This document shows, in pieces, positions 1-17,166 of a DNA stretch of 32,505 nt (position 1 is its first letter; the number at the start of each line of letters is the position of its first letter). The notes under the pieces are model-generated. The model searched no databases. It was not told the DNA's origin and saw only the letters and a program-made list of their open reading frames with translations. This stretch comes from a virus. The position numbers and the translations under genes were made by a program. The DNA lies in IMG/VR virus record IMGVR_UViG_3300027840_000004. One strand, written 5' to 3'.

Positions 1-127
1 CGCGCATATGATATTTCATCAATTCGCTCGCCTCGTAAATTTTTATATTATCCGAAGCTGTATAACTTGACACTCCTAGTATTTCATTTAATTCGGCATA
101 AGTTATATATGCTGTTCTTGTAATTGC
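1..127. repeat. Terminal direct repeat identical to 32379..32505 (circular overlap of the contig)
   Basis: Bases 1-127 (cgcgcatatgatatttcatc...gttcttgtaattgc) recur exactly as the last 127 bases. A gene reads continuously through the junction. Confidence 0.95.
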
Positions 128-130
128 CAT
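1..130 (-). CDS. Start codon and N-terminal part of the head-tail connector gene (same gene as 32143..32505, across the circular junction)
   Basis: The ATG at 128-130 (rc) is preceded by the SD AAAGGAG (135-141). It is in frame with the ORF running off the right end and translates as MAITRTAYITYAELNEILGVSSYTASDN... Confidence 0.8.
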   Translation of the reverse strand, partial: MAITRTAYITYAELNEILGVSSYTASDNIKIYEASELMKYHMR

Positions 131-161
131 ATTACCACTCCTTTATTTGTGTTTTAGTTAA

Positions 162-992
162 TTACGCTGCTCCGTTATCAACTTGGATTAAAGTAGGTCT
201 AACTGCCCCAGTTACATAAGCCCAACGACCTTGTACTGCTGCGTCTCCGATATAAGTTCCTGAACCATCTAATGATTGGATCATTACTTCTCTTGTGAAA
301 GCCATTCCGAATACGAATGCTCTTTCTTGCATTGCTATAATGTTAGTTCCTGCTGGAAGTAAAGTTGTAACGAATACGTCAAATCCTAAAACACGTCCAA
401 TGTAACCATCAGTTTGAATGCTATCTCCACGAGTTGTATCTAAAACTAATTTGCTATCTACTGATAACATAAGTCCTTGAACTTCTGGTGTAATTACTAA
501 TGCGCGTCCTTTTTGAGGTGCTTTTGCATTATCTAATGCTACTTTAAGAGCTATGATTTTTCCGTAAAGGTTTGCTGCTGTTGGTGCTGCTCCTGCTGCT
601 GCTACTAATTCAGTTCCGTCAGCTTCCATTTTGATAAATCCATCTTTGTCAATTTGCTCACCAGCTGAACCCATCGCTGCCATAAGTCTTTGAACTACGT
701 AATCTGATGGTGCAGTTTCTACTGTGAACCCATCCATAATTTCGTTGATTGCTTTTTCTTTAAGGTTTGCGATTGTTACATAAGCACTTCCGTCTGCTGA
801 TAAAGCAACGCCAGTACCTGGAACATAGTCAGCTATTGTTGCAAGTTCATTTACATAAACTTTAACGTTAGTTGAACCAGGAGTTCCCACGATATCTTTT
901 CTTGAAACTTGTCTAATAATTGAACTTTCTGCTAATACTTCTTCCGAGATATTTGAATACCCCTCAACTTTTCTTGCTGTTGTTACTGCCAT
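162..992 (-). CDS. Major capsid protein
   Basis: A 276-aa ORF with SD AGGAGATG sits directly after the scaffold gene in the canonical terminase-portal-MuF-scaffold-capsid order. The composition is Ala/Gly/Thr-rich. Confidence 0.75.
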   Translation of the reverse strand: MAVTTARKVEGYSNISEEVLAESSIIRQVSRKDIVGTPGSTNVKVYVNELATIADYVPGTGVALSADGSAYVTIANLKEKAINEIMDGFTVETAPSDYVVQRLMAAMGSAGEQIDKDGFIKMEADGTELVAAAGAAPTAANLYGKIIALKVALDNAKAPQKGRALVITPEVQGLMLSVDSKLVLDTTRGDSIQTDGYIGRVLGFDVFVTTLLPAGTNIIAMQERAFVFGMAFTREVMIQSLDGSGTYIGDAAVQGRWAYVTGAVRPTLIQVDNGAA

Positions 993-1012
993 AATATTTC
1001 ATCTCCTATTTC

Positions 1013-1573
1013 TTATTTTTTAAGTTTTTTATATGCCTCTAAAAATGAACTATCTTCTTTTCGCTGATAAGTTTCATCTTGTTTTTCCACTCCGACTTTC
1101 GGCATAGTTTTTTTAAGTTCCGGCAATTCTTCTTCAATTACTTTTGCAATTCTATTCTGCAATTCTTCATTGTTGATACCAGCCTCATTAAATAAGTCGT
1201 TCGTGTCGATTAGTTTTTTAACTAATCCCAGTTTGCTCGTGTCAACTTCTAATGATGATAAAGTAGTCTTGATACTTTCATCTAGTTTAGTTTCCTGAAC
1301 TTGTTTCTCTAATGTTGTGTATTTCGTTTTCCAGTCTTCAAGTTCTTCCGATTTTCTTTCTAAATCCGTTTTTTGTGCTTCTTGAAGTTCTTTAACTTTT
1401 TTAAGTCCATCTTTCGCACTTTTAACATCTTCGATACCCAATTCTTTTAGTAATTGTTCTTGTGCCGATTTTCTTTCTTTGGCAATAAGTCCGTTTACTT
1501 GCGATTGCGGTAACATTTCCTCTGATTTCGTTTCTACAACTGGTTCAGTAACCAAAGTTTCGTTATTTTCCAT
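1013..1573 (-). CDS. Capsid scaffolding protein (acidic coiled-coil, DUF4355-like)
   Basis: A 186-aa protein that is highly charged (E/K-rich), has heptad character, and lies immediately upstream of the capsid gene. Confidence 0.7.
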   Translation of the reverse strand: MENNETLVTEPVVETKSEEMLPQSQVNGLIAKERKSAQEQLLKELGIEDVKSAKDGLKKVKELQEAQKTDLERKSEELEDWKTKYTTLEKQVQETKLDESIKTTLSSLEVDTSKLGLVKKLIDTNDLFNEAGINNEELQNRIAKVIEEELPELKKTMPKVGVEKQDETYQRKEDSSFLEAYKKLKK

Positions 1574-1652
1574 AACTTGCCTCCTCCTCCGATTAAAGTG
1601 TCGGTAACTATGTGTTCCTCATACCTACAAAGCCGATAAGTGGGCTTGATTT

Positions 1653-2348
1653 TTATAATCCGTTTTCGTACCAAGAGTGTGTTAAATTAACATTGTTGAC
1701 AACTCCAACTAGGTTTTGCATTGTTAATAAATATTTTGTATTCTTTTTAAAAATAACTTCATTTTTTCTTTCAACGCTTCCGCCGACTCTTTGTCCTGCT
1801 CCACCAGCAACACCAATTCTTCCACATCTTAGTTTAGTTGCTCCAACAGTTGATATGCCCGTTGGATTTAATCTCATTGTTGCTGTTGATGTATTGCTTG
1901 ATAAACGATTATTGTTTAATAATAATTGTAATGTTCCATTTGCGTTTGCAGTTATTGTTTCATAAGTTTCATAAACAAGCGCTCCGTCGTTCGCAGTAAT
2001 ATCAAATATCATATGCAATCCCTTGTCGCCCGTTTCAATTACCCAATTCCAAGTTGTATTTGCAGGTATTGGCAAACATTGTGTATTAAAGAAGTGATAT
2101 CCTTTATGTATAAACCAGTGCTCTACATCAAGTGTTGCTATTGAATTGGAAATATCTTTGGCATTTTCTAAAACTAATGCCGTTCTTTCCATTTCTTGTC
2201 CGAACGACTTCATTGTTATTTCGCCATTTGCTAAATAAGGCAATAAACTTGGTGCGATGTCCGGAGACATCTCTGCGTTTTCGGTATCTAAATAACCATT
2301 TTGTGTTAGCACATCGCCGACTTCTAGTCCGTGTGATTTATTTCTCAT
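1653..2348 (-). CDS. Hypothetical beta-rich protein inserted in the head module
   Basis: A 231-aa ORF between the MuF-like and scaffold genes. I recognise no motif in it. Confidence 0.6.
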   Translation of the reverse strand: MRNKSHGLEVGDVLTQNGYLDTENAEMSPDIAPSLLPYLANGEITMKSFGQEMERTALVLENAKDISNSIATLDVEHWFIHKGYHFFNTQCLPIPANTTWNWVIETGDKGLHMIFDITANDGALVYETYETITANANGTLQLLLNNNRLSSNTSTATMRLNPTGISTVGATKLRCGRIGVAGGAGQRVGGSVERKNEVIFKKNTKYLLTMQNLVGVVNNVNLTHSWYENGL

Positions 2349-2365
2349 TTTTCCCCATCTCCTAT

Positions 2366-3145
2366 TTATTCATCAATTACATCTACACGCATAATGCAAT
2401 GACAGTTAATATCTTGGTTCGCTTTTCCAAAGTGCTGGGGTGCTATTGTTTTTATGCCACCTACATTAAACATAGTGTCGCGACCTTTGACAGTCTGACC
2501 GTTTGCATTCTTGTGTGTTTCTCTCGCTTCTTCTCCGCGCCCTGTGTGTATCCAAGTTTTTTTAATATTTAAATCTTTTGTCGCTTCAAGTTGTGCTTCT
2601 GATTTATAAAAGTTTTTCTCGGTAATTGCGATTGATTTCGCCTTGCCTTTACTGTAACCATATAAGCGTTGAAGTTCTTTCGCTGTTTGCTTATAATTTT
2701 TGCCGTCGCGATACATCTGCATTACTGTATTTTGTACTCGTTTGTTTAAAATCTTGGCATTGCCTTTTATAACTTGCTTGATTTTTATCTTTTGCTGGCG
2801 TTGTTTTATCAACTTATCAACTATGGCATTCCACTCTTTAACAGATATAGCCTTTTTTGGCACTTTTAAGCCTTTTTTAGCGAAGTTAAAGTATTTATTA
2901 ACCCCAAACATCACTTTATAACTTCCGTCCATTGTGATGGCTAAATTGCGTTCCCACAGTACTAATAAAATTGGGAGGATTAACTTTAACGAATTTTTTA
3001 CTTCTTTTTCGTTAGTTAATTCCCCGTCCTTATTATATTCCGGCTCTGCTATTGGTAAGTCTAGTTTGGCATAATTGTCATCAATATTCTTCAACATCAA
3101 TTTCGTTTCTTCGTTGTCTAATTTTTCCAATTCCTTTTCAGTCAT
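2366..3145 (-). CDS. Head morphogenesis protein (SPP1 gp7 / Mu F-like)
   Basis: The C-terminal signature HTGRGEEARETHKNANGQTV...PQHFGKANQDINCHCIM is typical of the Phage_Mu_F domain. The gene follows the portal gene. Confidence 0.8.
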   Translation of the reverse strand: MTEKELEKLDNEETKLMLKNIDDNYAKLDLPIAEPEYNKDGELTNEKEVKNSLKLILPILLVLWERNLAITMDGSYKVMFGVNKYFNFAKKGLKVPKKAISVKEWNAIVDKLIKQRQQKIKIKQVIKGNAKILNKRVQNTVMQMYRDGKNYKQTAKELQRLYGYSKGKAKSIAITEKNFYKSEAQLEATKDLNIKKTWIHTGRGEEARETHKNANGQTVKGRDTMFNVGGIKTIAPQHFGKANQDINCHCIMRVDVIDE

Positions 3146-3158
3146 TTTGTATCACTCC

Positions 3159-4598
3159 TTATTCGGTAGTGTTTTCTTCTTCCTCGAAAGTTACATTTCC
3201 ATTGTTGGTAAGTATACGCACTTTATCTTCTTCGCTTAATTCATCGCCATAAACATCGTCAAGCGCTTTCTCGTTATCAATAATGCTCGCGTCTATCAAC
3301 ATTTTAACTTCTTCAATTACTTCTTTTCTACTTGGTGTGATATACTCGCCGAATTTAACTTCAACATACATTTCTTTCTTATCAATGCCATGCACATTTA
3401 ATAATAGTAAGAATAGTTTTTCCAAAAATTCTTCCCAAGTTTCAATCATATTCTTTCTTGTTCTTAATGAAACAACTTCGCGTCTTGCGATATTTTCGCC
3501 CGATGCATTTGCTCCTGTGTTTTCATCAATACCAACAGTGATTGGAGATAGTCCAAATCCCGCTAAAATATTGTTCGTGATTGCGTTGATCGCTTTTGTA
3601 TATTCTTCGGTTCTTATTGCTGGCTGATTATGTGTAATTTCGCTTTTCGCTGTTTCGCGTAAATCCGTACCAGTAACAACATATTTCTTTTTAAATGCGT
3701 TGAACTGCTTGTTGTCCATTAAAATGTCCGGTACATAAGTTTCAGCGCGTCCATTTCTTATTTCATCACTTAATTGCGACCAAGTTTCATCTAAACTATC
3801 GAACTCGGCAATAAGCCCCTCATAATCGCTCTTGTTGGCAACTTTTTCCATCGCCCACATTTGATTGTTTGGGATTATTACGTTTACAATGTCCGCCGTT
3901 TCCGGTAGCGCATTCATATTTACTTCCGTAAGTCCGTGTTGTGTTTTTTTGTAAAGATTATATTTAACATAGCCTTTTCCATAATGCTCGTGAAGTTCAA
4001 ACTTCCCGTCATCGTATTTTTCAATGAATATTAACTCTTGTAAACGTCCGCGTTTATAAACTGCTCTATAAGATAGTGGACTATACTTCTCAATTATCGG
4101 GTATTCGCTAATTTCTTTATCAATACTTATTTTAACTGCAAATCTTCCAGCCCAACTTTCGGTAGTAATCATATTAGTTACTTGTTTTCTAAAATCATTG
4201 TCGTCAAGTATATCTTCTAAAACGATAGTTTCTTTTTCAACTTCTTTTTCTTTCATCATTACTTTATAATCCATACCGCCACTTTGTAGCAAGTTAGATT
4301 TTGCGTAAGAGCAGAAGCTTGGAAGTCCACTGTGTATAATTCTCATTGTTGCGTCAAGGTTTGAATAATAATAACTTGACTTCGTATCAATTGTTAATGA
4401 ACTTTGTGTTCTAGTGGCATAAAAGTCGGCTAGCAACTCCTCATTACCTAAAAACCACAAATATCGTTCTTGTAAATTGTATAACTCATTTTGCATTGCT
4501 AACTTCGGCATAGAACCACCACTTTCTCTTGAATAATTTTGAATATACGGATAAAGGAAGTTTGTTATTCCTTGCCCGAACTTATCTTTTAAATTCAT
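3159..4598 (-). CDS. Portal protein
   Basis: A 479-aa ORF immediately downstream of the large terminase, with an acidic C-terminal tail. Size and position are typical of an SPP1 gp6-type portal. Confidence 0.8.
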   Translation of the reverse strand: MNLKDKFGQGITNFLYPYIQNYSRESGGSMPKLAMQNELYNLQERYLWFLGNEELLADFYATRTQSSLTIDTKSSYYYSNLDATMRIIHSGLPSFCSYAKSNLLQSGGMDYKVMMKEKEVEKETIVLEDILDDNDFRKQVTNMITTESWAGRFAVKISIDKEISEYPIIEKYSPLSYRAVYKRGRLQELIFIEKYDDGKFELHEHYGKGYVKYNLYKKTQHGLTEVNMNALPETADIVNVIIPNNQMWAMEKVANKSDYEGLIAEFDSLDETWSQLSDEIRNGRAETYVPDILMDNKQFNAFKKKYVVTGTDLRETAKSEITHNQPAIRTEEYTKAINAITNNILAGFGLSPITVGIDENTGANASGENIARREVVSLRTRKNMIETWEEFLEKLFLLLLNVHGIDKKEMYVEVKFGEYITPSRKEVIEEVKMLIDASIIDNEKALDDVYGDELSEEDKVRILTNNGNVTFEEEENTTE

Positions 4599-4602
4599 AT
4601 AA

Positions 4603-5904
4603 TCACTTCCCTATCTCATTTTTGTAAGGTAGCCACCCATATTGTCCTGCTTGTATAAGGTGGTCGTTTCCGTCTTCTGGTTCATCTTTCGTTTCTTTCC
4701 ACGAATAAATGTTCAATTCTTTTTGCATTGGCTTCGTATCTTCTTCAACAAGGAAGAATTTTCCGATAGCGAACCAACCGCTTTGCATATTTATACGGTC
4801 AATATTCTTTGTTTTTTTGTAAGCGTCGAATACGTTGTATATCTTGCCCGTCATTTTTATATATTTACGAACTTCTAATATAGTCGCTTGATCCGCGCTG
4901 TCTATAAATATATTTTTAGTAAAGCCCCATTTTTCAAAACACATTTGTAAAAATAAATCTATCTTGACCGGCATATCGCTCGGCGTTAGTGGGACGACTA
5001 AATCTTTGTTGTTATATTCTCGGCAGTCTAGGACAACCCACTCGTTGTCGGTAGTTAAACCGCCATAAACAAGTGCGAATGTATCTTTTGAATTGCTTGA
5101 ATAAGATGTGTCAACTCCAAGGCTGAATAGTTTATAAGACTTTTTCTTTGCTTCTTCGCGTGTGATTAAATGGCGTGCTTCAAGATTAAATATCAATCCG
5201 CTTGCTCGACCGCGCAATCCCAACACTTTATTTTTATAAATCTTTGTTCCTTTCGGATAAGACCTTATCTTCTTTTCTTTTTGTTCTTGTGTAAGTCCGG
5301 CATTATCATCAAACATAAAATACCAGTGTACCCAACCATTTTCGGCTGGCTCATTTAACATCTCTAATAATTCCGTCGGATAATCTTTTTCATATTCCGG
5401 TAATGGTCTTGACTTGTTGATATACTCTTTATAAACATCTAAATCGGGATTGTCCGGATTTAATGTCGCCATAAGATAATCACAACGTCCTGATACTTCT
5501 CTTAAATAGTCCATATCTGCAATGTTGACCTCATCTATATAAACGCAACCAACTTGACCACCAAGGACTTTTTTCCATCTTGCTCGGTCGGAGTATCCTA
5601 AAACATATATGATTTTATTCTTTATTTGTAAGTGGGGCATATTGATTGGTCCTCGACCATTTCCATAATATGCAATGTTGTCGCCAAACACATCGAGTAT
5701 TCCCAACTCGGCATTGATAATATTTTTTTCAATAACTCCTAAATCAAGTCCGCTCAATATATGGTCTTTTTTATCACTTTTTAATACTTGGAATATGTAT
5801 TTAATAACGCCTGTTGTTGTTTTACCACTTGCAGTCGAACCTTCAAGGAACTCGAACTCGGCGTCCGTCTTTAAAAAATGCTTGTATTTATCACTAAATT
5901 CCAT
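4603..5904 (-). CDS. terL: Terminase large subunit
   Basis: Walker A is GSTASGKTT near the N-terminus and Walker B-like is VGCVYIDEV. A C-terminal acidic nuclease-type region is present (FIDSADQA), and the 433-aa size fits. Confidence 0.9.
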   Translation of the reverse strand: MEFSDKYKHFLKTDAEFEFLEGSTASGKTTTGVIKYIFQVLKSDKKDHILSGLDLGVIEKNIINAELGILDVFGDNIAYYGNGRGPINMPHLQIKNKIIYVLGYSDRARWKKVLGGQVGCVYIDEVNIADMDYLREVSGRCDYLMATLNPDNPDLDVYKEYINKSRPLPEYEKDYPTELLEMLNEPAENGWVHWYFMFDDNAGLTQEQKEKKIRSYPKGTKIYKNKVLGLRGRASGLIFNLEARHLITREEAKKKSYKLFSLGVDTSYSSNSKDTFALVYGGLTTDNEWVVLDCREYNNKDLVVPLTPSDMPVKIDLFLQMCFEKWGFTKNIFIDSADQATILEVRKYIKMTGKIYNVFDAYKKTKNIDRINMQSGWFAIGKFFLVEEDTKPMQKELNIYSWKETKDEPEDGNDHLIQAGQYGWLPYKNEIGK

Positions 5905-5908
5905 ATCA

Positions 5909-6277
5909 TCACTTCATCGCTTTTAAAATATCGTCCAATTTTCCGTCATTAAATTCGATTTTACTTTCGCTGCGGTCAACTGGTTTCTCGCCTATTGTAT
6001 CTCTCAATACCTCGAAAGCTTTGACGTTTCCGTTAAGTGCCTCGCCGATAAGTGCCATTGATACTTTTTCTTGCGTGTCGCCCATTTGTAAAAGTTTGAT
6101 TAAATCGTGTTTTAATAAAGTGTTGCGCTTGCGTGCAATGTGAGAGGCATATGCTCCCTTGCTTTGTATCGCTTTTACTTCTTCTGGGTCTCTTTGGTTT
6201 AATGGTATCAAATTATTATTAACTCCTGCCACATTTCCACCTCGCTTTTTTTTACCCTCTACTATTAAATTACCCAT
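5909..6277 (-). CDS. terS: Terminase small subunit (start uncertain)
   Basis: A basic N-terminus (GKKKRGGN..NNLIPLNQRDPEEVKAIQSKGAYASHIARKRN) resembles the common small-terminase motif, and the gene abuts terL. The track's TTG start at 6298 lies inside the upstream terminator. Candidate starts are the ATG at 6277 or the GTG at 6232 (SD GAGGTGG). Confidence 0.6.
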   Translation of the reverse strand: MGNLIVEGKKKRGGNVAGVNNNLIPLNQRDPEEVKAIQSKGAYASHIARKRNTLLKHDLIKLLQMGDTQEKVSMALIGEALNGNVKAFEVLRDTIGEKPVDRSESKIEFNDGKLDDILKAMK

Positions 6278-6295
6278 AACAAAATAAAAAGGCAA

Positions 6296-6321
6296 CAAAA
6301 AAAGTGTATTTTCTACACTTA
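6296..6321 (-). terminator. Intrinsic terminator between the sigma gene and terS
   Basis: On the minus strand the hairpin is AAGTGTA-gaaaa-TACACTT followed by TTTTTTT. The sigma stop codon lies inside the stem. Confidence 0.7.
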
Positions 6322-6855
6322 ATTGTTATTTATCGTTGATTTTATCTTTTTCATTGCCTTGTTATTTATATTTGTAATATGTGTTTGTGATAATTCGTAC
6401 TTTTCAGCTAACTGCTTGCGTGAAAGGTTAGCACTTCGCAAGTTCCACATATTAGTCAAAACATCTTGCTCTCGGTCGGTTAATAGAGATATGGCGTTGT
6501 ATAATTCTTTTTTTGTTTCATCAAACACCATATCGTCCTCTATTTTGCCATTTTCAGCCATTTCTAGCGACTTTAAATCGTTTTGAGTATAAATACACTC
6601 GTCGAGGCTAACATCTGTCCTAAGGCGTTTTTGTGCTGTTTCTCGCTTTATCTCTTTTAGCAATTCATTCTCCATACATTTATAAACGTAATTGGAAAAT
6701 GTCGATTTATTCTCATCGTAGCTGTTCAGCGCCTTGGCATAGCCGATATAACATATGTCCAAGTAGTCGTCTTTCTTATCATACAAGTGATATTTCTTCA
6801 AAATAGAGAACATCAGCGGGTGGTAGTCTTTCTCTTTGTAGTCATCAGTTCTCAT
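6319..6855 (-). CDS. Sigma-70 family (ECF-like, regions 2 and 4) RNA polymerase sigma factor
   Basis: The region-2-like segment is YIGYAKALNSYDENKSTFSNYVYKCMENELLKEIKRE. The region-4 HTH is LTDREQDVLTNMWNL...SRKQLAEKYELSQTHITNINNKAMKKIK. Confidence 0.8.
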   Translation of the reverse strand: MRTDDYKEKDYHPLMFSILKKYHLYDKKDDYLDICYIGYAKALNSYDENKSTFSNYVYKCMENELLKEIKRETAQKRLRTDVSLDECIYTQNDLKSLEMAENGKIEDDMVFDETKKELYNAISLLTDREQDVLTNMWNLRSANLSRKQLAEKYELSQTHITNINNKAMKKIKSTINNN

Positions 6856-8039
6856 TTTTTAATCATAACCTTTTCCTGCCCTCTATTCATCTTCATATAA
6901 TTATCATATTTATTATTATAATCATTATTCTTCGTATTGTAATAAGGTATTGCCTCCGGTAATATTGAAACAACATTTCCTTTGGTATCTAGTTTAATAG
7001 TAATAATCCACGCCCCAACATCATTTGATAATCCCTTGCCATCAGTAAATGGCGTGCGGTCTTGAAAACTCGGAACTTCAAAATAATGAATATTTCTATA
7101 AAGCATATAAAATAATTTGTGATGATGTCCACATAAAACAACATTTGGCTTTTTCCCACCACGAATTACATCTAAATGTTTTTGCCCACGATATGAATAA
7201 GCATAAGAACTTCCATCTTGCGGGTGCATTAGCAAAATCTCGCATTTATTTATATTTACAGTCGCCCTATCTTGCCCAAGATAAATCATATCACTTCTTC
7301 TATCAGCAATTACTCGCCCGATATCAGCCATTCCGTTTCTTTGGTGCGTATAGTCATGATTTCCTGTAAGAAAATATGTAGTCATTCCCTCGCGTTTAGG
7401 ATAAGCATTGACAACATAGTCCGCTTGATCGTCAAAGCCTAACATAAATATACTTCCTAATCTATCTTTATAAAATCCGTCCGAGATGTCGCCGGCGTGT
7501 AAAACTGTATCAATGCCACGCTCTTGGAATAAATCATAAGTCTTGTGTAGTAATTCAAGTTGTTGCCATTTACTGCATAAGTGCGTGTCTGATACAACGC
7601 CAAGCGTGATTGTAGAAGCAACATCAGGAAGCCTCAACTCGTTATCTTCAATATCGCTCTTGCCAAGTTTAATCTTGATATCATCATCAACTTTATAAAC
7701 TTGAATGTTATAATGCGACAATTTCAATTCTTCAACAATGCCAAGTATTTCAATTTTTGTCATTTCAAAGTATTTTTCAAGTTGCTCAATATCTTTTTCA
7801 GCTTTGATAAGTTTCAATAAGTTGGTCTTTGTATCTTCCAAACTTTCTTTCTCGCTGCGAAGTGGAAGCACATATTTTTTATAAGTACTTCTCCACGCCT
7901 CAAATCCTATGCTTGTATCAAACTCCTCGTTCGCCTTTTTAGTCGCCTTTTCCCAATAGCCATATCCATTTTCTTTTTTCTCGTCCTCAATAATCCTTTT
8001 TAACTTTTCGATGTGGTCAATATTATTTTTGTCAAACAT
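6852..8039 (-). CDS. Calcineurin-like metallophosphoesterase with a roughly 140-aa helical N-terminal extension
   Basis: MPE motifs appear in order: GVVSDTHL, HAGDISDG, LTGNHDY, LLMHPQDG, LCGHHH. The ATG at 8039 has better SD spacing (AAGGAG + 8 nt) than the ATG at 8045. A 4-nt overlap with the sigma gene implies coupling. Confidence 0.8.
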   Translation of the reverse strand: MFDKNNIDHIEKLKRIIEDEKKENGYGYWEKATKKANEEFDTSIGFEAWRSTYKKYVLPLRSEKESLEDTKTNLLKLIKAEKDIEQLEKYFEMTKIEILGIVEELKLSHYNIQVYKVDDDIKIKLGKSDIEDNELRLPDVASTITLGVVSDTHLCSKWQQLELLHKTYDLFQERGIDTVLHAGDISDGFYKDRLGSIFMLGFDDQADYVVNAYPKREGMTTYFLTGNHDYTHQRNGMADIGRVIADRRSDMIYLGQDRATVNINKCEILLMHPQDGSSYAYSYRGQKHLDVIRGGKKPNVVLCGHHHKLFYMLYRNIHYFEVPSFQDRTPFTDGKGLSNDVGAWIITIKLDTKGNVVSILPEAIPYYNTKNNDYNNKYDNYMKMNRGQEKVMIKK

Positions 8040-8084
8040 TTGCATTTCTCCTTTTCGTAGAAGTCCATTCTACCCTCTAATTAT

Positions 8085-8112
8085 ATTATACCACTAATTT
8101 GTGTGTTGACAA
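8085..8112 (-). promoter_or_regulatory. Sigma-70-type promoter for the MPE-sigma operon
   Basis: On the minus strand: TTGTCA, 16 nt, then TGgTATAAT (extended -10). A 5'UTR hairpin GTAGAA-tggac-TTCTAC precedes the SD. Confidence 0.65.
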
Positions 8113-8116
8113 CACA
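8102..8116. promoter_or_regulatory. Perfect 15-bp palindrome overlapping the -35 (candidate operator)
   Basis: TGTGTTG-N-CAACACA. The half-site GTGTTG also overlaps the -35 regions of the promoters at 8711..8739 and 14897..14925. Confidence 0.45.
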
Positions 8117-8134
8117 TTTTACATAAAAAGGCAT

Positions 8135-8704
8135 AAAAAAACCAAACTTTCGTTTGATCGTTTTATACTTGGCTAATATGTCCATCGCTTTCGCTTCTCA
8201 ATGCAAGTCATTTTAAATAATAAATACAAGTCGGTCAAGTCTACTCCAAATTTTACAATTGATATTATTTTAGGCATTTACTACTATTTCCAATGCGGAT
8301 ACCTCTTGTATTTGTGCAAAGTTATTAACCCTGCTTGTAAGATATCAACGAGTTGACCTACTCTACATTCCGTGGATTTATAGTCCATTCCGCAGATGAT
8401 TTGATACCCTACAAGCAAGATTTAACTCTTGCCCATCATTCTCTCACAAGCCATCTACATTTTCTATCGTGGCTTTCACAATGTTTATTTTAAGTGTCCC
8501 TTGCTAGCATTTAACACTAATATAAATAGAGAACGATAATTTGGAGTTATTCGCTCCTTTGTGAAATGTAATAATCACACTTTGACCAGACGACCTTGTT
8601 AGATATTTGTCCAGTTATAGTAATCTACATCTCACAAAGCAAGGAACAAGTCCGTTGCTCGAAAGGGGTTTTCAAAGGTTGTCAGAGAAGTAATTTACCT
8701 CTCT
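8135..8704 (-). ncRNA. Large (about 570 nt) structured noncoding RNA candidate, class unknown (ROOL/GOLLD-like size and context)
   Basis: No ORF of 60 aa or more exists in any frame across 8046..8769. The unit begins at a consensus promoter and ends at a hairpin plus U7 tract (8135..8157). There is a 5' hairpin at 8684..8704. Long-range helices are 8625-8639/8557-8571 (15 bp), 8401-8416/8333-8348 (16 bp) and 8528-8537/8435-8444 (10 bp). Every non-Watson-Crick pair in them is G.U only on the minus strand. Confidence 0.6.
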
Positions 8705-8710
8705 AATGAT

Positions 8711-8739
8711 ATTGTATCATCAACACAAAGAAGTGTCAA
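8711..8739 (-). promoter_or_regulatory. Near-consensus sigma-70 promoter driving the noncoding unit
   Basis: On the minus strand: TTGACA (8734-8739), a 17-nt spacer, then TACAAT (8711-8716). The predicted TSS is near 8704. Confidence 0.75.
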
Positions 8740-8769
8740 CACCTTTCGCACATTTTGTATAATTTATTT

Positions 8770-8946
8770 TTAATCTTTAAATGTTGATAAGATTTCAAGC
8801 GCCAGTTCTTCATCAGTTCCTAAATATTCCTCGGCGATGTGTTTGATTTCTTCCAGTTGCTTACTCTCTTTTCGCACGATATAAATTATTGCTGTGATTA
8901 AAACTAGTAGCCCAATGGCGATTATATCAAATACCGATATCATCAT
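8770..8946 (-). CDS. Small membrane protein (58 aa, one N-terminal TM helix)
   Basis: It falls below the track cutoff. It translates as MMISVFDIIAIGLLVLITAIIYIVRKESKQLEEIKHIAEEYLGTDEELALEILSTFKD. The start overlaps the HNH stop (ATGA). Confidence 0.55.
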   Translation of the reverse strand: MMISVFDIIAIGLLVLITAIIYIVRKESKQLEEIKHIAEEYLGTDEELALEILSTFKD

Positions 8947-9332
8947 TTTCTTCTTCTCCCTTTTTTATCTTCTCTGTGGTAGGTTAGTAAATGGTCGCGT
9001 GTGTAGGTCGGTTGATATTCCATTTCAGTTAAACATCTCTCTAACCACTTATAAAACTCGTATCTCATCTTGTCATCACAAGTTGCTTTGTACTCATAAA
9101 GAAATTGCTTGATTAGTTTCAGTTTCTTTATGTCATCATCAATTAGTATATGAAGCCCGCTATGTTCGAGGTGTGCGACGAGTGATCCATTTTCGGTACT
9201 CGTTGCGCCACCTTTACTTCTCGGCTCTATATGGTGCATTGTAATAGGGTTGCTAGTGCGGATTATTCCACCGCACATACAAATTGTCCCGTAGTCGTAA
9301 ACAAGTAAATCCCTAACTTTCTTGTTGTCCAC
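8943..9332 (-). CDS. HNH endonuclease
   Basis: The motif CMCGG...ITMHHIEPRSKGGATSTENGSLVAHLEHSGLH is an HNH/Zn-finger signature. The start is GTG. Confidence 0.85.
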   Translation of the reverse strand: MDNKKVRDLLVYDYGTICMCGGIIRTSNPITMHHIEPRSKGGATSTENGSLVAHLEHSGLHILIDDDIKKLKLIKQFLYEYKATCDDKMRYEFYKWLERCLTEMEYQPTYTRDHLLTYHREDKKGRRRK

Positions 9333-9705
9333 CGGTGCAAGACCCCTTTCCAGTTGGTTTGTTATCTTTGAACCAGCCCGTCATATCACATATAAGCGGG
9401 TTTTCAGCGTGGTATTCCTCATCATTGATTAAACATAAGGCATTCCAAACAATGGCGCTTAAATGGTCTTCTGTGCGGTCGCCTTTCGCGTATTTGGACG
9501 CGTGGCGCATTAAACTCCCAAACACCGCACTTTGTGGCTGACCTTTGCGCCAGTTGTTATCGCCGTATTTATCAGCACCTAATCCATACCAAATCGCAAC
9601 GCGTTCTAGTAAGTCAAGTGGTAATAATTCCATTCGTGGTTTGTGGTCGGCGAAGTCTCGTTTACTTCCTGAGCTGAACTCTCTTGTTTTTCCGCTAGTT
9701 TCCAT
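9313..9705 (-). CDS. DUF5664-like protein (family annotated as dATP/dGTP diphosphohydrolase N-terminal domain)
   Basis: KRDFADHKPRMELLPLDLLERVAIWYGLGADKYGDNNWRKGQP...RHASKYAKGDRTEDHLSAIVWNALCL matches my memory of that family's consensus. This is not verified by any search. Confidence 0.55.
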   Translation of the reverse strand: METSGKTREFSSGSKRDFADHKPRMELLPLDLLERVAIWYGLGADKYGDNNWRKGQPQSAVFGSLMRHASKYAKGDRTEDHLSAIVWNALCLINDEEYHAENPLICDMTGWFKDNKPTGKGSCTGGQQES

Positions 9706-9734
9706 ATAATGTTACTCTCTCTTTCTTTCTATTC

Positions 9735-10214
9735 TTATTTCGTATCAGTCAATAACTCATAAACTACTTTGCCCATTGATACTTTTGAGCAGAATATGAA
9801 CTCAATTCCGTATCGTTTACTCATTGTTTCCATAATCCTTTGTAATGTGTCGGATTTTACTTTTGTTCGTGGAAGTCCGGTTGTTGAACTCTTTGGCACT
9901 TTCCAAGTATAGACCTCATCGACAAATCGGATTTGCGCGTGGGCGATTAGGAAAATGAAACGCTCGCAGCCGATATCTTTGGCACGCTGGATTTCTCGTT
10001 TAATGCGTTCGTGGTTGGAAGAGTTGGCAAGGTTTCCGCAGACTTCCATCAGGTCTTTTTTTGTGTCTATTATGACGCGATTGGAGTTGGTAAGTTTGTA
10101 GTCGCCGGCATATAACTTGTTGCGGATATATCTTATCTCGTTGCGTTCGAAGTAGTCGATGATGTGTTTATCTTTTTGTTGGCGAGTATCACATTCGATA
10201 ATTATATTATTCAT
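9735..10214 (-). CDS. ERCC4/XPF-type nuclease (possible resolvase)
   Basis: YAGDYKL...VIIDTKKDLMEVCGNL...ERIKREIQRA resembles the ERCC4 GDY..ERK..DL..S motif. The ATG at 10214 has an SD (GGGGA) and an ATGA overlap with the upstream stop. Confidence 0.55.
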   Translation of the reverse strand: MNNIIIECDTRQQKDKHIIDYFERNEIRYIRNKLYAGDYKLTNSNRVIIDTKKDLMEVCGNLANSSNHERIKREIQRAKDIGCERFIFLIAHAQIRFVDEVYTWKVPKSSTTGLPRTKVKSDTLQRIMETMSKRYGIEFIFCSKVSMGKVVYELLTDTK

Positions 10215-10498
10215 ATAATCCCCATTTCTTTGAATTGATTTAAATAATAAGTTTCGCATTGATCATCTTCCTCGAAGCGGTGAAAGTATTTCGTTAGTTC
10301 ATCAGGATATTTTTCATAATAACTTTTTAAATATTTTGAATAAAGTGAATTGAATAATTTTGTATTTACTTTTGTTTTGTCCGTAATTGTTATACAGTCC
10401 TTATTTTTCCATAAATAGTTCAATAAAACGGTCATCGAGATTGGCGGTTGTTTTATCTGTGCGACTTCGTCGCGGTTTGTAAGGTTGTGGTTATTCAC
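10211..10498 (-). CDS. Hypothetical protein
   Basis: A 95-aa ORF, translationally coupled in the operon. Confidence 0.5.
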   Translation of the reverse strand: MNNHNLTNRDEVAQIKQPPISMTVLLNYLWKNKDCITITDKTKVNTKLFNSLYSKYLKSYYEKYPDELTKYFHRFEEDDQCETYYLNQFKEMGII

Positions 10499-10718
10499 TT
10501 ATCGCACCTCTTTTTGCTAATTTTTCGATTTTTTCGTATTTTTCTTTCATCTTTTGAAAATCACAATCTTCTTTATAATTAAAATCAATAATATCTAATA
10601 AGTATTTAGTTAATTCTTTGTTGGTGTTTCCTATGTTGTCAATAAGGTCAATAATGCAATATTTTATTTTGTAATTTTCTTTTAATAATCGTAACTTTTC
10701 TTTTTCATTTAGCGTCAT
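10491..10718 (-). CDS. Hypothetical protein
   Basis: A 75-aa ORF that overlaps its neighbour. Confidence 0.5.
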   Translation of the reverse strand: MTLNEKEKLRLLKENYKIKYCIIDLIDNIGNTNKELTKYLLDIIDFNYKEDCDFQKMKEKYEKIEKLAKRGAISE

Positions 10719-10726
10719 ATCTTATT

Positions 10727-10927
10727 TCACTCCTTTGATTTCTTTATCGTATCTATAAACTCATTGATACTCGCATATAATTCGCGCTTGCCTTTGTTTC
10801 GTTTTGCCTTGTTAATATCAATATTCATATCTCGGTAGAATTGCGCAACATCTTGCTTATCTAATTCGACTACTACTGAATTGAAGTAAGGATCGATTAT
10901 GATTAAACTTAATTTTGGTGTGTTCAT
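10727..10927 (-). CDS. Hypothetical protein
   Basis: A 66-aa ORF with a 4-nt overlap with the upstream gene. Confidence 0.5.
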   Translation of the reverse strand: MNTPKLSLIIIDPYFNSVVVELDKQDVAQFYRDMNIDINKAKRNKGKRELYASINEFIDTIKKSKE

Positions 10928-11337
10928 ATCTTCTCCACCTCATTTCTAAACTCCTCAACACTAATCTCGCGACTTTTTAATTTCGTTGCCAAATTAAGTA
11001 TTGCTTGAATATTCTTCTTTTCTTCAATCTCCCCATTATACAACTTAATCAACTGCTCTTGGTATTGGTTAAAATGCGCCGTTGTAGGCTCGATTTGTAC
11101 CAACTCACATATATCGCCAACTATGTTGTATTTATCCACACACACGACCGCCATTAGGTTGAAATCGTAGTTTTTAAAGTTTTTGTAGAATTGTTTCATA
11201 AATAATAATAAACTGCGGTATTGTTTGAAGTGTTTTGGCTCGACAATCAGTTGGTCTGTCAATTCAGGTTTAATAAGTAGGCAGGATATAATTGCTCTTT
11301 CAAGCGTTGTGAAGTCGTTGTATAAAAGTTCGTTCAA
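10924..11337 (-). CDS. DnaB N-terminal-domain-like protein
   Basis: LERAIISCLLIKPELTDQLIVEPKHFKQYRSLLLFMKQF resembles the start of the DnaB N-terminal domain. No ATPase domain is present. Confidence 0.45.
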   Translation of the reverse strand: MNELLYNDFTTLERAIISCLLIKPELTDQLIVEPKHFKQYRSLLLFMKQFYKNFKNYDFNLMAVVCVDKYNIVGDICELVQIEPTTAHFNQYQEQLIKLYNGEIEEKKNIQAILNLATKLKSREISVEEFRNEVEKI

Positions 11338-12453
11338 CTAAATCCACTCCTTATCCCACAAACTTACATCTTGTGGTAAATGATCCGTTCCATAAATTGC
11401 ATTGTATGAAGCTACTAGGAATTTATCATATTCAACATAATCAAATATGTTATGTGATTTTCCAATATTTATAAGTGCTTTTCTTGGTGCGCCAATTCCT
11501 CCAAATAGTTCGATCATTTCAATGTGTTCTTCGTTTTTAAATAGTTCGGTAAATATTGCCTCTAATAAATTTACAACAATACTATTTCCTGCTTGTTTAT
11601 AAAGTTGTCTATTGCTGTTTACTTTAGCCGCTTTTTCAAAATCGGCATCATCAAATCCCATTAGTCGCCAACATTCTTTTGGTGTTAGTTTTCTTATCTT
11701 ATAATTTGTAAATACAGCTTGATTGCATGATGTTGTCAATGTTTGTGCTACTTGATGATCTACACGACCTCTTCTTGTTTTTGAGTTAGGATGTTCTAGG
11801 TTAATACTGTCTCCATCCTTTGCCTCGGCATATCCTTTTTTTGTAGCTTCTTTCACAATCATAATTTGAAGATTTGTTGTTTCCTCTAACTGTTCGCAAT
11901 AAGTAATCATTCCACTATGTTCTTCTCCAGCACCCCTTGCAGTAAGTGTTGGACAAATACTATTATTACCTTGTACTTTTTCAAAAGGTTTTTGATATGC
12001 TTTCCAATTTGCAATCTTACCGATTTTTTTTTCACTTAAATAATACTTCTCATCAACTTTATCTTCTAATAAGTCTTTTAATTTAAGTTGTAGTTCTTGT
12101 TTTGGTGGAAATACAAAATTATTAACATCACTTAAAATTGATATACAAAAAACTCTTTCTCTATTTTGAGGTATTCCATAATCTTTTGCATTAAGCACCT
12201 GATAATAATTTTTATAACCTAGTTGTTCCATTTTTGTTAAATAATCATCAAACACTTGTCTATGTTTCTTACTTATAACATTTTTAACATTTTCCCAAAT
12301 AACATAATCTGGTCTAGTCTTTTCCACTATTCTAATTGTTTCATAAAGTAGCGAACTTCTTGTTCCACTCCCTTGTTCTCCACCTGCTTGTTTTCCTGCA
12401 AGACTGAAATCTTGACAAGGACTTCCGTGAAATATTACTTTTGCTTTATTCAT
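11338..12453 (-). CDS. DNA (cytosine-5)-methyltransferase with circularly permuted motif order
   Basis: Motif IV (GSPCQDFSLAG) is at residues 10-20, followed by VI (ENVKNV), VIII (QNRERVF), IX (RKLTPKECWRLMGF) and X (QAGNSIVV). Motif I (ELFGGIG, nt 11491-11508) and motif II (VEYDK...N) come at the C-terminus. A strong SD GAGGAGGAAG precedes the ATG. Confidence 0.8.
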   Translation of the reverse strand: MNKAKVIFHGSPCQDFSLAGKQAGGEQGSGTRSSLLYETIRIVEKTRPDYVIWENVKNVISKKHRQVFDDYLTKMEQLGYKNYYQVLNAKDYGIPQNRERVFCISILSDVNNFVFPPKQELQLKLKDLLEDKVDEKYYLSEKKIGKIANWKAYQKPFEKVQGNNSICPTLTARGAGEEHSGMITYCEQLEETTNLQIMIVKEATKKGYAEAKDGDSINLEHPNSKTRRGRVDHQVAQTLTTSCNQAVFTNYKIRKLTPKECWRLMGFDDADFEKAAKVNSNRQLYKQAGNSIVVNLLEAIFTELFKNEEHIEMIELFGGIGAPRKALINIGKSHNIFDYVEYDKFLVASYNAIYGTDHLPQDVSLWDKEWI

Positions 12454-12724
12454 TTTCTTCCTCCTCTATTTTAATAACTATAATTCTTTGGCTGTACTCA
12501 TCTTTAACTCGGCGGGCATATGCTGGCATTGTATAAAAATAAAATGTATTAGGACTAACTCCTAAAAAAGTCGCACACTGCCATTTATTGCCGATAAATA
12601 AAAATTGATCGCCCTTGTAAATTGCATAATCTTGTGAAGTTACGATAATAATCCCCTCTTTTTCTTTATAATATATAATCAAACTAACAATATAATAGCA
12701 CCTATTATAAGTACAGTCTAACAT
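12446..12724 (-). CDS. Small putative DNA-binding protein (start uncertain)
   Basis: YAIYKGDQFLFIGNKWQCATFLGVSPNTFYFYTMPAYARR resembles small phage HTH proteins. The listed ATG lacks an SD and lies inside an iteron. An internal SD AAGAGGGG is present but no canonical start follows it. Confidence 0.4.
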   Translation of the reverse strand: MLDCTYNRCYYIVSLIIYYKEKEGIIIVTSQDYAIYKGDQFLFIGNKWQCATFLGVSPNTFYFYTMPAYARRVKDEYSQRIIVIKIEEEENE

Positions 12725-12978
12725 TTTGTATTTTTTAGTCTAACATTTATCTAACATTTATCTAACATTTTTATTGGCACTTTGCCCTTATTTTTCAACA
12801 AAGTCTAACATTCTAACATAAAAGTCCGGCATCGAGCCTTACGCGAGAAAAATATTTATAAATTATTTCTATTATAGGGTGTGTAGTTGGAAAAAAATGT
12901 TAGAATGTTAGACACCTATATGAAATAAGGTCAAACTAGGCGTTTTTCTTGTAGAATTACGTTAGAATAATGTTAGAC
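12716..12978. repeat. Iteron array, putative origin of replication
   Basis: CTAACAT occurs 6 times directly (12718, 12740, 12751, 12762, 12805, 12813; three of them at 11-bp phasing). ATGTTAG occurs 3 times inverted (12897, 12905, 12970), plus a partial copy at 12960. A perfect 17-bp inverted repeat, GTCTAACATTCTAACAT (12803-12819) and ATGTTAGAATGTTAGAC (12897-12913), flanks a 77-bp core with an AT-rich stretch. Confidence 0.6.
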
Positions 12979-12986
12979 TTTTGACT

Positions 12987-14732
12987 TCAAGCCACAATTT
13001 CGTCGATTTTTAGGTAAACGTAGTTCCCTTTTTCTTTTCGAACAATCGTGTTGTGATAGTATCGACCTTGCGAATTTGTCTTCAAAAAGTCCATTTCTGC
13101 CCACTCTTTTTTGATTGTGTCAAACTCATAACCGCCTTTTGAAAGCTCACGACTTAAAACTTGCATATTTATTACGTAGTTAAACTCGTCCTTACGCCCC
13201 CAAACTTCGCCATAGCCCATATCATCAAAACGTTTATAATTGGCATTAAATAGTCCAATAATGAACTCTTTGGCTTTCATACAAGTTCTAATTTCGTCTT
13301 TGTCGTTGATATATTCTTTTATATCATCTATTTCAAGCGATAGTTCGTTATCAAACATACACTCGCCCGCCAATTCATCAGCTAGGAGTAGGCTAGCAAG
13401 CGATCCAGCCTGCTTATCAGTCGCCTTGGTAGTATTAAGTATCTCATTATAAATAACGTTGTAGCGGTCTTCTAACACGCCTGATTTAAGTGATTGAATG
13501 TACTTGATATAAATCTCGCCGGCAAATCCATAGTTGCGTTTGATGATTGAGGCGATTTTCGTTCCGTCCTCGACAATCTTTCCGCGTATTTCCATATCAA
13601 TAACACGATTATAAACTTGCTCGCCGGCATTTTCCTTAACCAATTTATCATTATTAGTAAATAAAAAGTTGCAGTACCAAGTTTTAACTTCTTTTGCTTG
13701 CGAGTTCTTATTCAATCGCCCTTTTTCCGTTTGACCGGATAAATCCATTACTAAACTATCCATATCTAAATGTTTATTTTTCTTCACGATTTGCAACTCG
13801 TCAAAGTAGCAAGTTAAGTTTCGCATAAACGAAGCGACTGTTATATAGTAGTTTTGAGTGTTATTACTTGATAAGCGCAGCGCCCCAGTGTCCGGATTTC
13901 CGAATATTGACATCGCCACCATACAAGACAGTGTTTTACCATTTCCCGATAGTGATGACCACGCATTTACTAAATAAGGCTGTAAAGTCAACTTTTCCAA
14001 TAATGGAGAAGCAAAAACAGTTGCCATAAGTAAACGAACTACTTTGTTGGCGCGTAATACATCGACCGTTTCTTTCCAAGTGTTGTAATCGCCCTTTGTA
14101 TCTATCGCTTTATAAATAGATTTGAAATCATCTGCTCCGTCGAACATCGCCCCGCTGTCGTAAGGAATAAACTTATCGTCTTTCCAGCCGAGATGTGAAA
14201 CGGAAGATAATGTTTCAATTTTGTTGATATTCATAATCTCGTTGAAATAATTTACATAGTGTTTAACATTTTCGCTCGTAACATCAAGACCATAATCGGC
14301 AAGTCGTAGAAGCTTTACGCCAACTACCAACTCACTTTTATCAACGATCATTTCTTGCCACTTGTTTTCTTTATAAAATATTATCTTAATTTTTTCTTTA
14401 TAAGTGTCCTCGTTTATAAATCTCTCGACCGGAATAACCGGTATAAAAGAGAACTTCAAGTTTTGATTATCTGTGATACCGTTGATGTCTACTTTATAAA
14501 TCCCAAAATTGAAATTTTGTACGTTATATTTGGTCGGTGGCAGATCGCCATTATTGACAAACATCTTTGTTGATTTGATTTTCTTTTCCCATTGTTTTAA
14601 TAATTTTTTAAAAGTAGGTTCAACGCCGTCAAGTTTTGCTTGGCGCAACATCTTCGCCTCGACTTTTGTTCGTTCGATATCGTCTGTTATTGCTAACAAC
14701 TCTATAAAATTTTTATCTTCTAAAATGTCCAC
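12987..14732 (-). CDS. DUF927-type replicative helicase/primase (SF3-like)
   Basis: Walker A is SLSGNGKTL and Walker B-like is CYFDELQ. The 581-aa size fits. The start is GTG with SD AAGGGGA. Confidence 0.65.
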   Translation of the reverse strand: MDILEDKNFIELLAITDDIERTKVEAKMLRQAKLDGVEPTFKKLLKQWEKKIKSTKMFVNNGDLPPTKYNVQNFNFGIYKVDINGITDNQNLKFSFIPVIPVERFINEDTYKEKIKIIFYKENKWQEMIVDKSELVVGVKLLRLADYGLDVTSENVKHYVNYFNEIMNINKIETLSSVSHLGWKDDKFIPYDSGAMFDGADDFKSIYKAIDTKGDYNTWKETVDVLRANKVVRLLMATVFASPLLEKLTLQPYLVNAWSSLSGNGKTLSCMVAMSIFGNPDTGALRLSSNNTQNYYITVASFMRNLTCYFDELQIVKKNKHLDMDSLVMDLSGQTEKGRLNKNSQAKEVKTWYCNFLFTNNDKLVKENAGEQVYNRVIDMEIRGKIVEDGTKIASIIKRNYGFAGEIYIKYIQSLKSGVLEDRYNVIYNEILNTTKATDKQAGSLASLLLADELAGECMFDNELSLEIDDIKEYINDKDEIRTCMKAKEFIIGLFNANYKRFDDMGYGEVWGRKDEFNYVINMQVLSRELSKGGYEFDTIKKEWAEMDFLKTNSQGRYYHNTIVRKEKGNYVYLKIDEIVA

Positions 14733-17028: not shown

Positions 17029-17166
17029 TTAACTGCTCCTATCTATAAGTTCAGCAATTGCTATTCTCACAAGGGCATTTAATGAAATGCGTTTTTTATC
17101 AGCAAGTTCGACCGCCTTTTGTTTTAATTCATCCGGAAGAACCACTGAAATCGGTTTCATCCTCAT
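17029..17166 (-). CDS. Ribbon-helix-helix (CopG-like) protein, 45 aa
   Basis: It falls below the track cutoff. It translates as MRMKPISVVLPDELKQKAVELADKKRISLNALVRIAIAELIDRSS. The SD is AGGAGG, and its stop abuts the next ATG. Confidence 0.6.
   Translation of the reverse strand: MRMKPISVVLPDELKQKAVELADKKRISLNALVRIAIAELIDRSS

Follow-up and report, generated by a model that had tools for sequence, protein, structure and literature searches.

What does a small phage genome hold in the largest gap between its genes? The genome in question is IMG/VR record IMGVR_UViG_3300027840_000004, a stretch of 32,505 nt that we analysed at its full length and call the window. On its coding strand, positions 8046-8769 (724 nt) form the largest gap when open reading frames (ORFs) are cut off at 50 amino acids (aa), and the runner-up measures 265 nt. 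An earlier note on this DNA had proposed that positions 8135-8704, read on the minus strand, are a promoter-to-terminator unit for a large structured RNA. We find that 8135-8704 is a strand-specific noncoding unit and that the RNA predicted from it is structured well beyond chance. The reading that we favour, with a probability of roughly 55%, is a stand-alone structured noncoding phage RNA that is made from an autonomous unit and acts in trans. The RNA represents a small, modular, previously undescribed family, as opposed to a large ornate RNA of fixed form. By type, it is a candidate for a further structured phage RNA, a well-supported one and not an established class.

A predicted noncoding transcription unit upstream of the packaging genes

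The unit separates two groups of genes, arranged as the earlier note had described them. Upstream are genes for a cytosine methylase, an ERCC4 nuclease, a protein with a MazZ-like dATP/dGTP diphosphohydrolase domain, a 129-aa HNH protein and a 58-aa ORF. Downstream are genes for a 397-aa metallophosphoesterase (MPE; 6852-8045), a sigma-70-family protein, a small-terminase-like protein (terS), TerL and an SPP1-type portal.

Between these groups, 8046-8769 contains no ORF of at least 60 aa in any frame, which agrees with the earlier claim. The ORFs of 20-51 aa inside it have no convincing ribosome-binding site. We rejected a type I toxin-antitoxin system or a small protein, since neither strand offers a credible ORF or ribosome-binding site. 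The unit and its flank carry the following signals.

8711..8739, minus strand: promoter P1, TTGACA-17-TACAAT with a TG extension, 11 of 12 in a promoter scan, with a predicted start near 8704

8684..8704, minus strand: 5'-terminal hairpin AGAGAGG-UAAAUUA-CUUCUCU (AGAGAGGUAAAUUACUUCUCU), read from the sequence at the predicted +1 and present in every minimum-free-energy (MFE) and centroid fold

8135..8157, minus strand: weak intrinsic terminator, UCAAAC-GAAA-GUUUGG and then U7, read from the sequence and formed in the fold of 8135-8326

8085..8112, minus strand: promoter P2, TTGTCA-16-TATAAT with TG, found in the promoter scan; predicted to serve the MPE-sigma-terminase operon, and the 3' boundary of the unit

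The earlier note had located the first three correctly and had also placed a second promoter for the downstream operon just beyond the terminator. In positions 1-12500, P1 and P2 are the only minus-strand sites that score 11 of 12 with TG, and the remaining genome adds one minus-strand site as good (22756-22728, 12 of 12). The two promoters are paralogous past their hexamers (8711-8762 and 8085-8126): both have TTATRYAAAATGTG upstream, and both have ATTAGAG and a leader hairpin downstream (repeat families D2 and D5). This likeness suggests either a duplicated promoter cassette or a site for a shared regulator. The terminator is weak and was not listed by a terminator scan, because its stem has just 2 G-C pairs.

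Strand-specific folding of the RNA

Three long-range helices proposed for the minus strand are exact as proposed and contain no mismatches. Helix 1 (8625-8639 with 8557-8571) has 15 bp, 13 of them Watson-Crick and 2 G.U. Helix 2 (8401-8416 with 8333-8348) has 16 bp, 14 Watson-Crick and 2 G.U, and reaches 22 uninterrupted pairs when extended. Helix 3 (8528-8537 with 8435-8444) has 10 bp, 9 Watson-Crick and 1 G.U, and extends to 12 pairs. All 5 non-Watson-Crick positions in the three helices are G.U on the minus strand, again as the earlier note had it.

The fold of 8135-8704 is strongly strand-specific. The MFE is -153.1 kcal/mol on the minus strand (z = -5.89) and -117.6 kcal/mol on the plus strand (z = -2.03). 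Counting Watson-Crick and G.U pairs, the longest uninterrupted helices of the RNA measure 22, 15, 12, 12 and 12 bp, and the plus-strand maximum is 11 bp. Across 500 dinucleotide-shuffled sequences, the maximum helix length was 12.2 bp on average and 17 bp at most, and the second-longest helix was always shorter than 15 bp. A 12-bp helix such as helix 3 was the third-longest in about 10% of shuffles.

Significant structure is limited to the 5' ~380 nt of the RNA, and the 3' third is unstructured. The 5' part (8327-8704) has a z-score of -6.02 on the minus strand versus -2.98 on the other strand; the 3' ~190 nt (8135-8326) has a z-score of +0.21. The proposal of a large structured RNA of about 570 nt thus stands for the unit and for its 5' ~380 nt, and fails for the remainder. 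A pseudoknot suggested between 8389-8394 and 8294-8299 is also not upheld: the 6-bp complement exists but is within chance, and its 3' partner lies in the unstructured segment.

In a 300-nt sliding fold scan of the whole minus strand, the RNA region has the second most negative z-score. The top window of the scan (12706-13005) falls on a probable iteron-type replication origin and scores -7.0 and -8.35 on the two strands, which makes it a strand-symmetric control. The RNA region differs from this control in being strand-asymmetric and in containing no iterons. It is not a repeated DNA motif, because it contains no iterons and an 18-mer from its conserved core occurs once in the genome.

Parts of the RNA and its two relatives

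We found two relatives of the RNA, both in Logan assemblies (SRR23967305 for L014, SRR21915725 for L015) and both reached through the MPE protein. The closest phage, L014, is a sister of the window phage, with identities of 83% in MPE, 76% in TerL and 84% in primase. The other, L015, is more distant: its MPE is 48% identical, and otherwise only a methylase is shared with the window. Compared with these relatives, the RNA of the window resolves into the following parts.

8655..8670, minus strand: block AACCCCUUUCGAGCAA, common to L014 (blastn against the L014 gap, 79% over 34 nt including the block)

8545..8651, minus strand: long hairpin P1a, in which helix 1 grows to about 27 columns; a C.C and a G.G mismatch are conserved, and the apical insert measures 55 nt

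8433..8539, minus strand: core three-way junction, matched to L015:3763-3854 by nhmmer and blastn, with the same fold in both

8318..8427, minus strand: long hairpin P1b, which is helix 2 with 22 uninterrupted pairs (8401-8422 with 8327-8348) and a 52-nt loop; a paralogue of P1a, and inverted repeat I2

8158..8326, minus strand: A/U-rich 3' segment without significant structure, credible ORF, or homology to L014 or L015 beyond short words

The extended 28-nt arms of P1a form inverted repeat I1. The core consists of helix 3 (8528-8539 with 8433-8444), a UUUAU/AUAAA stem stacked on hairpin A (8490-8520), and hairpin B (8448-8475). Its joining strands are invariant between the window and L015 and read CUAUUUAU, GGACACUUAAAAUAAACA and UGUGAGA; the conserved strands of the RNA include UGUGAGA and ACUUAAAAUAAACA. 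The apical loop of P1b (8366-8397) contains two 12-nt direct repeats, AUC(U/C)(G/A)CGGAAUG, placed 20 nt apart (repeat family D7). A dimer could bind at these repeats.

The L014 unit is about 180 nt long, lies between the ERCC4 and sigma genes, and has the same layout of promoter, 5' hairpin, terminator and second promoter. It includes a TTAACA-17-TATACT promoter with TG, an analogue of the 5' hairpin (GUAGUU-GAGA-AAUUAC), the block AACCCCUUUCGGGCAA and one long hairpin. The terminator-P2 junction is homologous between the two phages (72% over 39 nt). The second promoter of L014, also with TG, follows the terminator, and the P2 promoters of the window and L014 score 10-11 of 12.

The L015 unit is about 400 nt long; its promoter is of the extended -10 type (TGTTATAGT), and its terminator is a hairpin followed by U7. 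Its segment 3763-3854 matches window positions 8533-8442 at 77-85% identity (nhmmer, blastn). The hairpin arms match too, and the 3' arm of P1b aligns with the 3' arm of the L015 hairpin. The earlier note had helix 3 closing a junction with two hairpins, and the same three-way junction is found in L015. The homologous units contain no sense-strand ORF of at least 25 aa.

Sequence differences between the window and L015 largely preserve pairing. In P1a and the L015 hairpin, 17 pairs are identical, and the C.C and G.G mismatches are both conserved. Three further pairs are kept by changes on both sides (C-G to U-A, U-A to A-U and G-C to A-U), and 3 more switch on one side only between a G.U and a Watson-Crick pair. 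One pair at the terminus has been lost, and another pair has been gained. In hairpin B, 6 bp are kept through 2 both-sided changes, and helix 3 shows one change from G.U to G-C. RNAalifold misaligned hairpin B when given the two cores, so its pairs were tallied from a hand-anchored alignment. The pairwise tally between the window and L015 is 5 compensatory changes, 4 wobble-neutral changes, 1 pair lost and 1 gained, with three family members found in all.

Across the family, the P1-type hairpin is present in 3/3 genomes in 4 copies, two of them in the window, and its distal 9-12 pairs are always paired despite differing sequences. The junction core is present in 2/3 members, and the units range from about 180 to 570 nt. 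The invariant joining strands of the core suggest, from conservation in these sequences, that they are themselves recognised.

Searches beyond these loci returned no further members. We ran blastn with the region, its structured part and the L015 unit against 50,697 GenBank phage records and obtained no matches. We also scanned IMG/VR, JGI metagenomes and GTDB genomes for exact or degenerate patterns: the conserved 18-mer, the junction, the hairpin plus UGUGAGAU and the AACCCCTTTCGRGCAA block. These gave either nothing or chance matches, as checked with nhmmer. No RNA homologue was found at the loci of relatives of MPE (L001-L013, L155-L157), TerL (L174-L177) or ERCC4 (L178, L179). When IMG/VR was scanned with the sigma protein and a 130-aa protein of L015, no relatives came up. 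One MPE locus has a 600-nt noncoding gap near the MPE relative (L001:2110-2709), built of ATGAACAACAAA-type iterons plus an AT-rich block. This gap resembles a replication origin and has nothing to do with the RNA.

Weighing an autonomous RNA against a leader and a mosaic

Several observations weigh against a stand-alone RNA. First, the core and helices 2 and 3 are missing from L014 and are therefore dispensable in the sister phage. Second, the topology is not constant: the L015 hairpin encloses the core, and the window core lies between two hairpins. Neither a fixed large architecture nor one topology across relatives is borne out. Third, the L015 unit has no sense-strand preference in folding (z = -5.49 antisense versus -4.63 sense). 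Fourth, with just three members the covariation rests on pairwise comparison and is outside the reach of R-scape, and hairpin A, the joining strands and most of helix 3 say nothing on pairing because they are invariant. Finally, the wobble pairs would stabilise single-stranded DNA equally well as G.T.

The next gene of L015 also belongs among these points. It begins 17 nt past the U-run of the terminator and leaves no room for a second promoter, so the L015 operon must be transcribed through the terminator. This arrangement fits better with a cis-acting leader or attenuator of the MPE-sigma-terminase operon, in which read-through of a weak terminator would time the sigma and late genes in the manner of lambda PR'-6S-tR'/Q or HK022 put. 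In this view, transcription from P1 or from early genes further upstream would halt at the terminator until a phage or host factor, or an RNA element that acts on RNA polymerase, let the enzyme pass. The terminator lies directly upstream of the MPE operon in 3/3 genomes, and this operon includes the sigma gene in the window and L014. The window terminator, with its 2 G-C pairs, is weak, which also speaks for a leader. Furthermore, the sigma, terS and terL genes are separated by gaps of at most 20 nt, which leave no intergenic room for a late promoter, so late-gene control must sit upstream of the MPE gene. The arms of the hairpins could also form competing local hairpins (GCAA..UUGC and GGAG-CGAAUAA-CUCC), as read from the sequence.

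A leader of this kind, the main rival, is nevertheless unlikely in our judgement. A strong promoter of its own follows the terminator in the window and L014, so the operon needs no read-through there. By inspection, not by a systematic search, we saw no obvious antiterminator segment in competition with the stem of the terminator. Among the neighbouring proteins, Pfam and PHROGs revealed no antiterminator of the Q or N kind. In addition, about 190 nt of unstructured, non-conserved sequence separate the conserved domain from the terminator.

The modular make-up of the family raises a different question, namely whether duplicated or inserted hairpin modules have accumulated in permissive intergenic DNA as a functionless mosaic, with fold statistics that reflect this history. 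P1a and P1b are paralogous, and their arms are able to cross-pair in a 12-bp alternative helix (8627-8638 with 8334-8345). The spread in unit length between sister phages (180 to 570 nt), the different order of modules in the window and L015, and a 3' third that is neither structured nor conserved are all expected of such a mosaic.

We consider this improbable. The changes between the window and L015 keep pairing, though the phages otherwise share just MPE and the methylase, and single-stranded motifs of 18 nt and 7 nt are invariant. Imperfections confined to G.U, together with the strand asymmetry, would be unexpected for neutral DNA palindromes. The module is absent elsewhere in the genome and unmatched in the pattern and BLAST searches above, and it is therefore not a spreading element akin to a miniature inverted-repeat transposable element. 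An autonomous RNA remains our preferred account.

Packaging and replication signals

The position of the unit, between the HNH gene and the terminase genes, could also be that of a DNA-level element: a cos or pac site, a replication origin or a single-strand initiation site, with hairpins that act as DNA structures or protein-binding repeats. HNH-assisted cos cleavage occurs in some phages, the region contains long inverted repeats, and the G.T wobbles mentioned above apply to single-stranded DNA.

The phage encodes an SPP1-type portal, a MuF-type head protein, a GP3/SPP1-like terS and a PBSX-like TerL. Such SPP1-type sets are typical of headful packaging, with pac at terS. A cos site served by HNH would be expected between the HNH and terS genes, alongside HK97-type packaging genes and cohesive ends. 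In the window, the MPE and sigma genes separate the region from terS, unlike such a layout, and the units of L014 and L015 adjoin neither an HNH gene nor terS. An origin is more plausibly placed at 12725-12986, an intergenic region just downstream of the primase/helicase gene with dense TGTTAGA(C/T)AAA iterons, direct and inverted, around an AT-rich centre; this strand-symmetric region is the probable replication origin. In our unit, the promoter and terminator on its flanks and the strand-specific pairing fit a transcript. We therefore regard a DNA-level element as very unlikely.

The contigs of close TerL relatives start about 20-200 nt from the TerL start (23 nt in L175 and 206 nt in the contig of P0124). 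These contig starts may reflect that, in this group, genomes end or packaging begins close to terS/terL.

Proposed mechanism

For the autonomous RNA, we propose the following sequence of events. Host sigma-A RNA polymerase would start at P1, near 8704; early transcription by the host enzyme is a reasonable expectation because P1 is one of three near-consensus sigma-A promoters. Most transcripts would stop at the weak hairpin-U7 terminator at 8135 and yield a noncoding RNA of about 570 nt. The hairpins at both ends would shield this RNA from exonucleases, and it is from these terminal hairpins that we infer that the RNA is stable, the 5' hairpin presumably contributing. The 5' ~380 nt would form a rigid scaffold in which P1a and P1b flank the ~105-nt three-way junction.

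The abundant early RNA would then act in trans. Its scaffold may show the conserved single strands and the two helix mismatches to a host or phage protein partner, around the switch to sigma-driven late expression. A role as protein decoy or scaffold is our guess.

A bolder version of the autonomous RNA makes it the founding member of a new modular class of phage RNAs, made at a very high level at once on infection. Here the hairpins, with their two conserved mismatches, would hold a junction that binds, sequesters or joins into an assembly with one specific partner at the early-to-late switch. We put this forward tentatively, as the less probable outcome. The partner, in this version, would be RNA polymerase or a sigma factor, a nuclease, a defence protein or the RNA itself. 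A function parallel to that of ROOL and GOLLD, or a switch for the sigma-driven late programme, either way unrelated to described families, is conceivable though again rather unlikely.

Other features of the genome

The ends of the contig (1-127 and 32379-32505) are an exact 127-nt direct repeat, which identifies a circular assembly and a complete genome of 32,378 bp. The length of the repeat suggests an assembler overlap at k=127. All genes of the genome are on one strand. The genes for replication, like the probable origin, occupy the stretch at 12-19 kb, and a lysis gene is found near 23 kb. Among the encoded proteins we recognised no integrase, no reverse transcriptase and no large HNH/RuvC protein. 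The phage, with its complete 32.4-kb genome, is an apparently virulent siphophage of a low-GC Bacillota host.

On the minus strand, 22716-22756 holds a perfect sigma-A promoter (12 of 12, with TG), and a plus-strand promoter that scores 11 of 12 overlaps it. The pair probably marks the early control region; nothing else in the genome hints at plus-strand transcription.

The MPE proteins form an uncharacterised phage protein family that is placed beside sigma and terminase genes. The family occurs in forms of ~395 aa and ~680 aa, and its database relatives include P0037, P0064 and P0073. Some members have N-terminal helix-turn-helix domains (PF08279, PF13542). We found no relative in cultured bacterial phages, and the only relative in a cultured virus is from a Halorubrum tailed virus.

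The MazZ-like protein is a 130-aa product of 9313-9705 with the N-terminal domain of dATP/dGTP diphosphohydrolases (PF18909, E = 1e-20). Its presence in phages is associated with modification of their purines. A PurZ or DatZ partner was not seen, though no dedicated search was made.

An unlisted 45-aa ORF at 17029-17166 encodes a ribbon-helix-helix-like protein (ISLNALVRIAIAELI) and lies directly upstream of an exonuclease/Sak4-like gene. This ORF contains, at 17071, the third copy of a hairpin-plus-UGUGAGA motif that we had considered as a repeated regulatory signal; we dropped the idea, as the motif is the 5' arm of long hairpins. The core 18-mer was likewise rejected as a repeated late-promoter motif because of its single occurrence. 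We also asked whether the RNA is a base-pairing small RNA. RNAduplex against 42 translation-initiation regions gave no outlier, and its energies were dominated by unrealistic loops, so the comparison is uninformative.

Comparison with known RNAs and regulatory systems

Few structured RNAs are known from phages, and what they do is largely unclear even for ROOL and GOLLD. If real, the RNA described here would offer a compact setting in which to study the role of such RNAs, with a 32-kb genome and a conserved core of ~100 nt. It is apparently driven by one of three strong host-type promoters and sits at the gateway to the sigma/packaging operon. Nature also provides variants, a sister phage with the hairpin module alone and a distant phage with hairpin and core, which point to module swaps as an approach. 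For now it is a good candidate from three sequences and not an established RNA class.

The size and setting of the RNA had led the earlier note to consider membership in ROOL or GOLLD. A published study counts ROOL, with GOLLD and OLE, among the large ornate bacterial RNAs and describes their RNA-only assembly into homo-oligomers (PMC12286853). We found no support for membership in either family. An Rfam 15 cmscan of the whole window at the gathering threshold returned no matches. A cmscan of 7950-8850 (901 nt) with relaxed filters and E<=10 returned seven far-sub-threshold chance matches to snoRNAs, a microRNA and small sRNAs (small regulatory RNAs). As far as Rfam models can see, ROOL, GOLLD, OLE, HEARO, raiA, group I and II introns, 6S RNA and pRNA are excluded.

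Other classes were rejected from the gene content. A HEARO/IscB omega-RNA is not expected, as the neighbouring HNH protein has just 129 aa and a lone HNH motif. A retron, a diversity-generating retroelement or an omega-RNA was set aside because no reverse transcriptase and no protein of IscB or TnpB size was recognised. ARAGORN rejected a tRNA- or tmRNA-like element and found no tRNA genes in the 32.5-kb genome.

Two structured RNAs share aspects of the genomic setting. 6S RNA (RF00013), which is stable and structured, has a link to competition between sigma factors, and the unit may be of interest here for its place beside a phage sigma gene. The unit differs in having no Rfam match and in its long hairpins, which lack a large central bubble that would mimic an open promoter. 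The pRNA of phi29 (RF00044), from a Bacillota phage, is structured, is transcribed early from a promoter and is encoded near the packaging genes. Our RNA is likewise a promoter-driven structured phage RNA close to packaging genes. It has no Rfam match, however, and this phage has a classical terS/TerL/SPP1-type portal machine; we know of no such machine that uses a pRNA.

Leader systems resemble the unit in layout. The late leader of lambda combines the strong constitutive promoter PR', the short noncoding 6S RNA and the terminator tR' directly upstream of the late genes, with antitermination by Q. Here, too, a promoter, a noncoding transcript and a terminator stand directly upstream of late and packaging genes. 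The transcript here, in contrast, is highly structured and longer by a factor of 3, the terminator has a second strong promoter after it in 2/3 genomes, no Q-like protein was recognised, and late control involves a phage sigma factor. HK022 put and other processive-antitermination leaders (EAR, LoaP leaders) are elements of the nascent leader upstream of a terminator. The likeness is one of layout only, a conserved ~100-nt element with two hairpins upstream of a terminator. We detected no sequence or model similarity to these leaders, and L014 has no core although it retains the layout of promoter and terminator.

The large phage RNAs are closest in kind. GOLLD (RF01998) is a large structured RNA of ~800 nt in phages of low-GC Gram-positive bacteria. 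Our RNA is also a large structured RNA of a phage with a low-GC Gram-positive host, and it differs in being much shorter, without an Rfam match or an association with tRNAs. ROOL (RF03087) is phage-encoded, about 570-580 nt long, and often found next to tRNA genes in prophages and phages. The RNA of the window is similarly a phage-encoded, noncoding, many-helix RNA of ~570 nt. Unlike ROOL, it matches no model, has no tRNA genes for neighbours, is structured over ~380 nt, and does not keep its architecture in a sister phage. Since topology and module content vary among its members and the hairpin arms of the window RNA can cross-pair, the family is modular and rearranging, which sets it apart from both ROOL and GOLLD.

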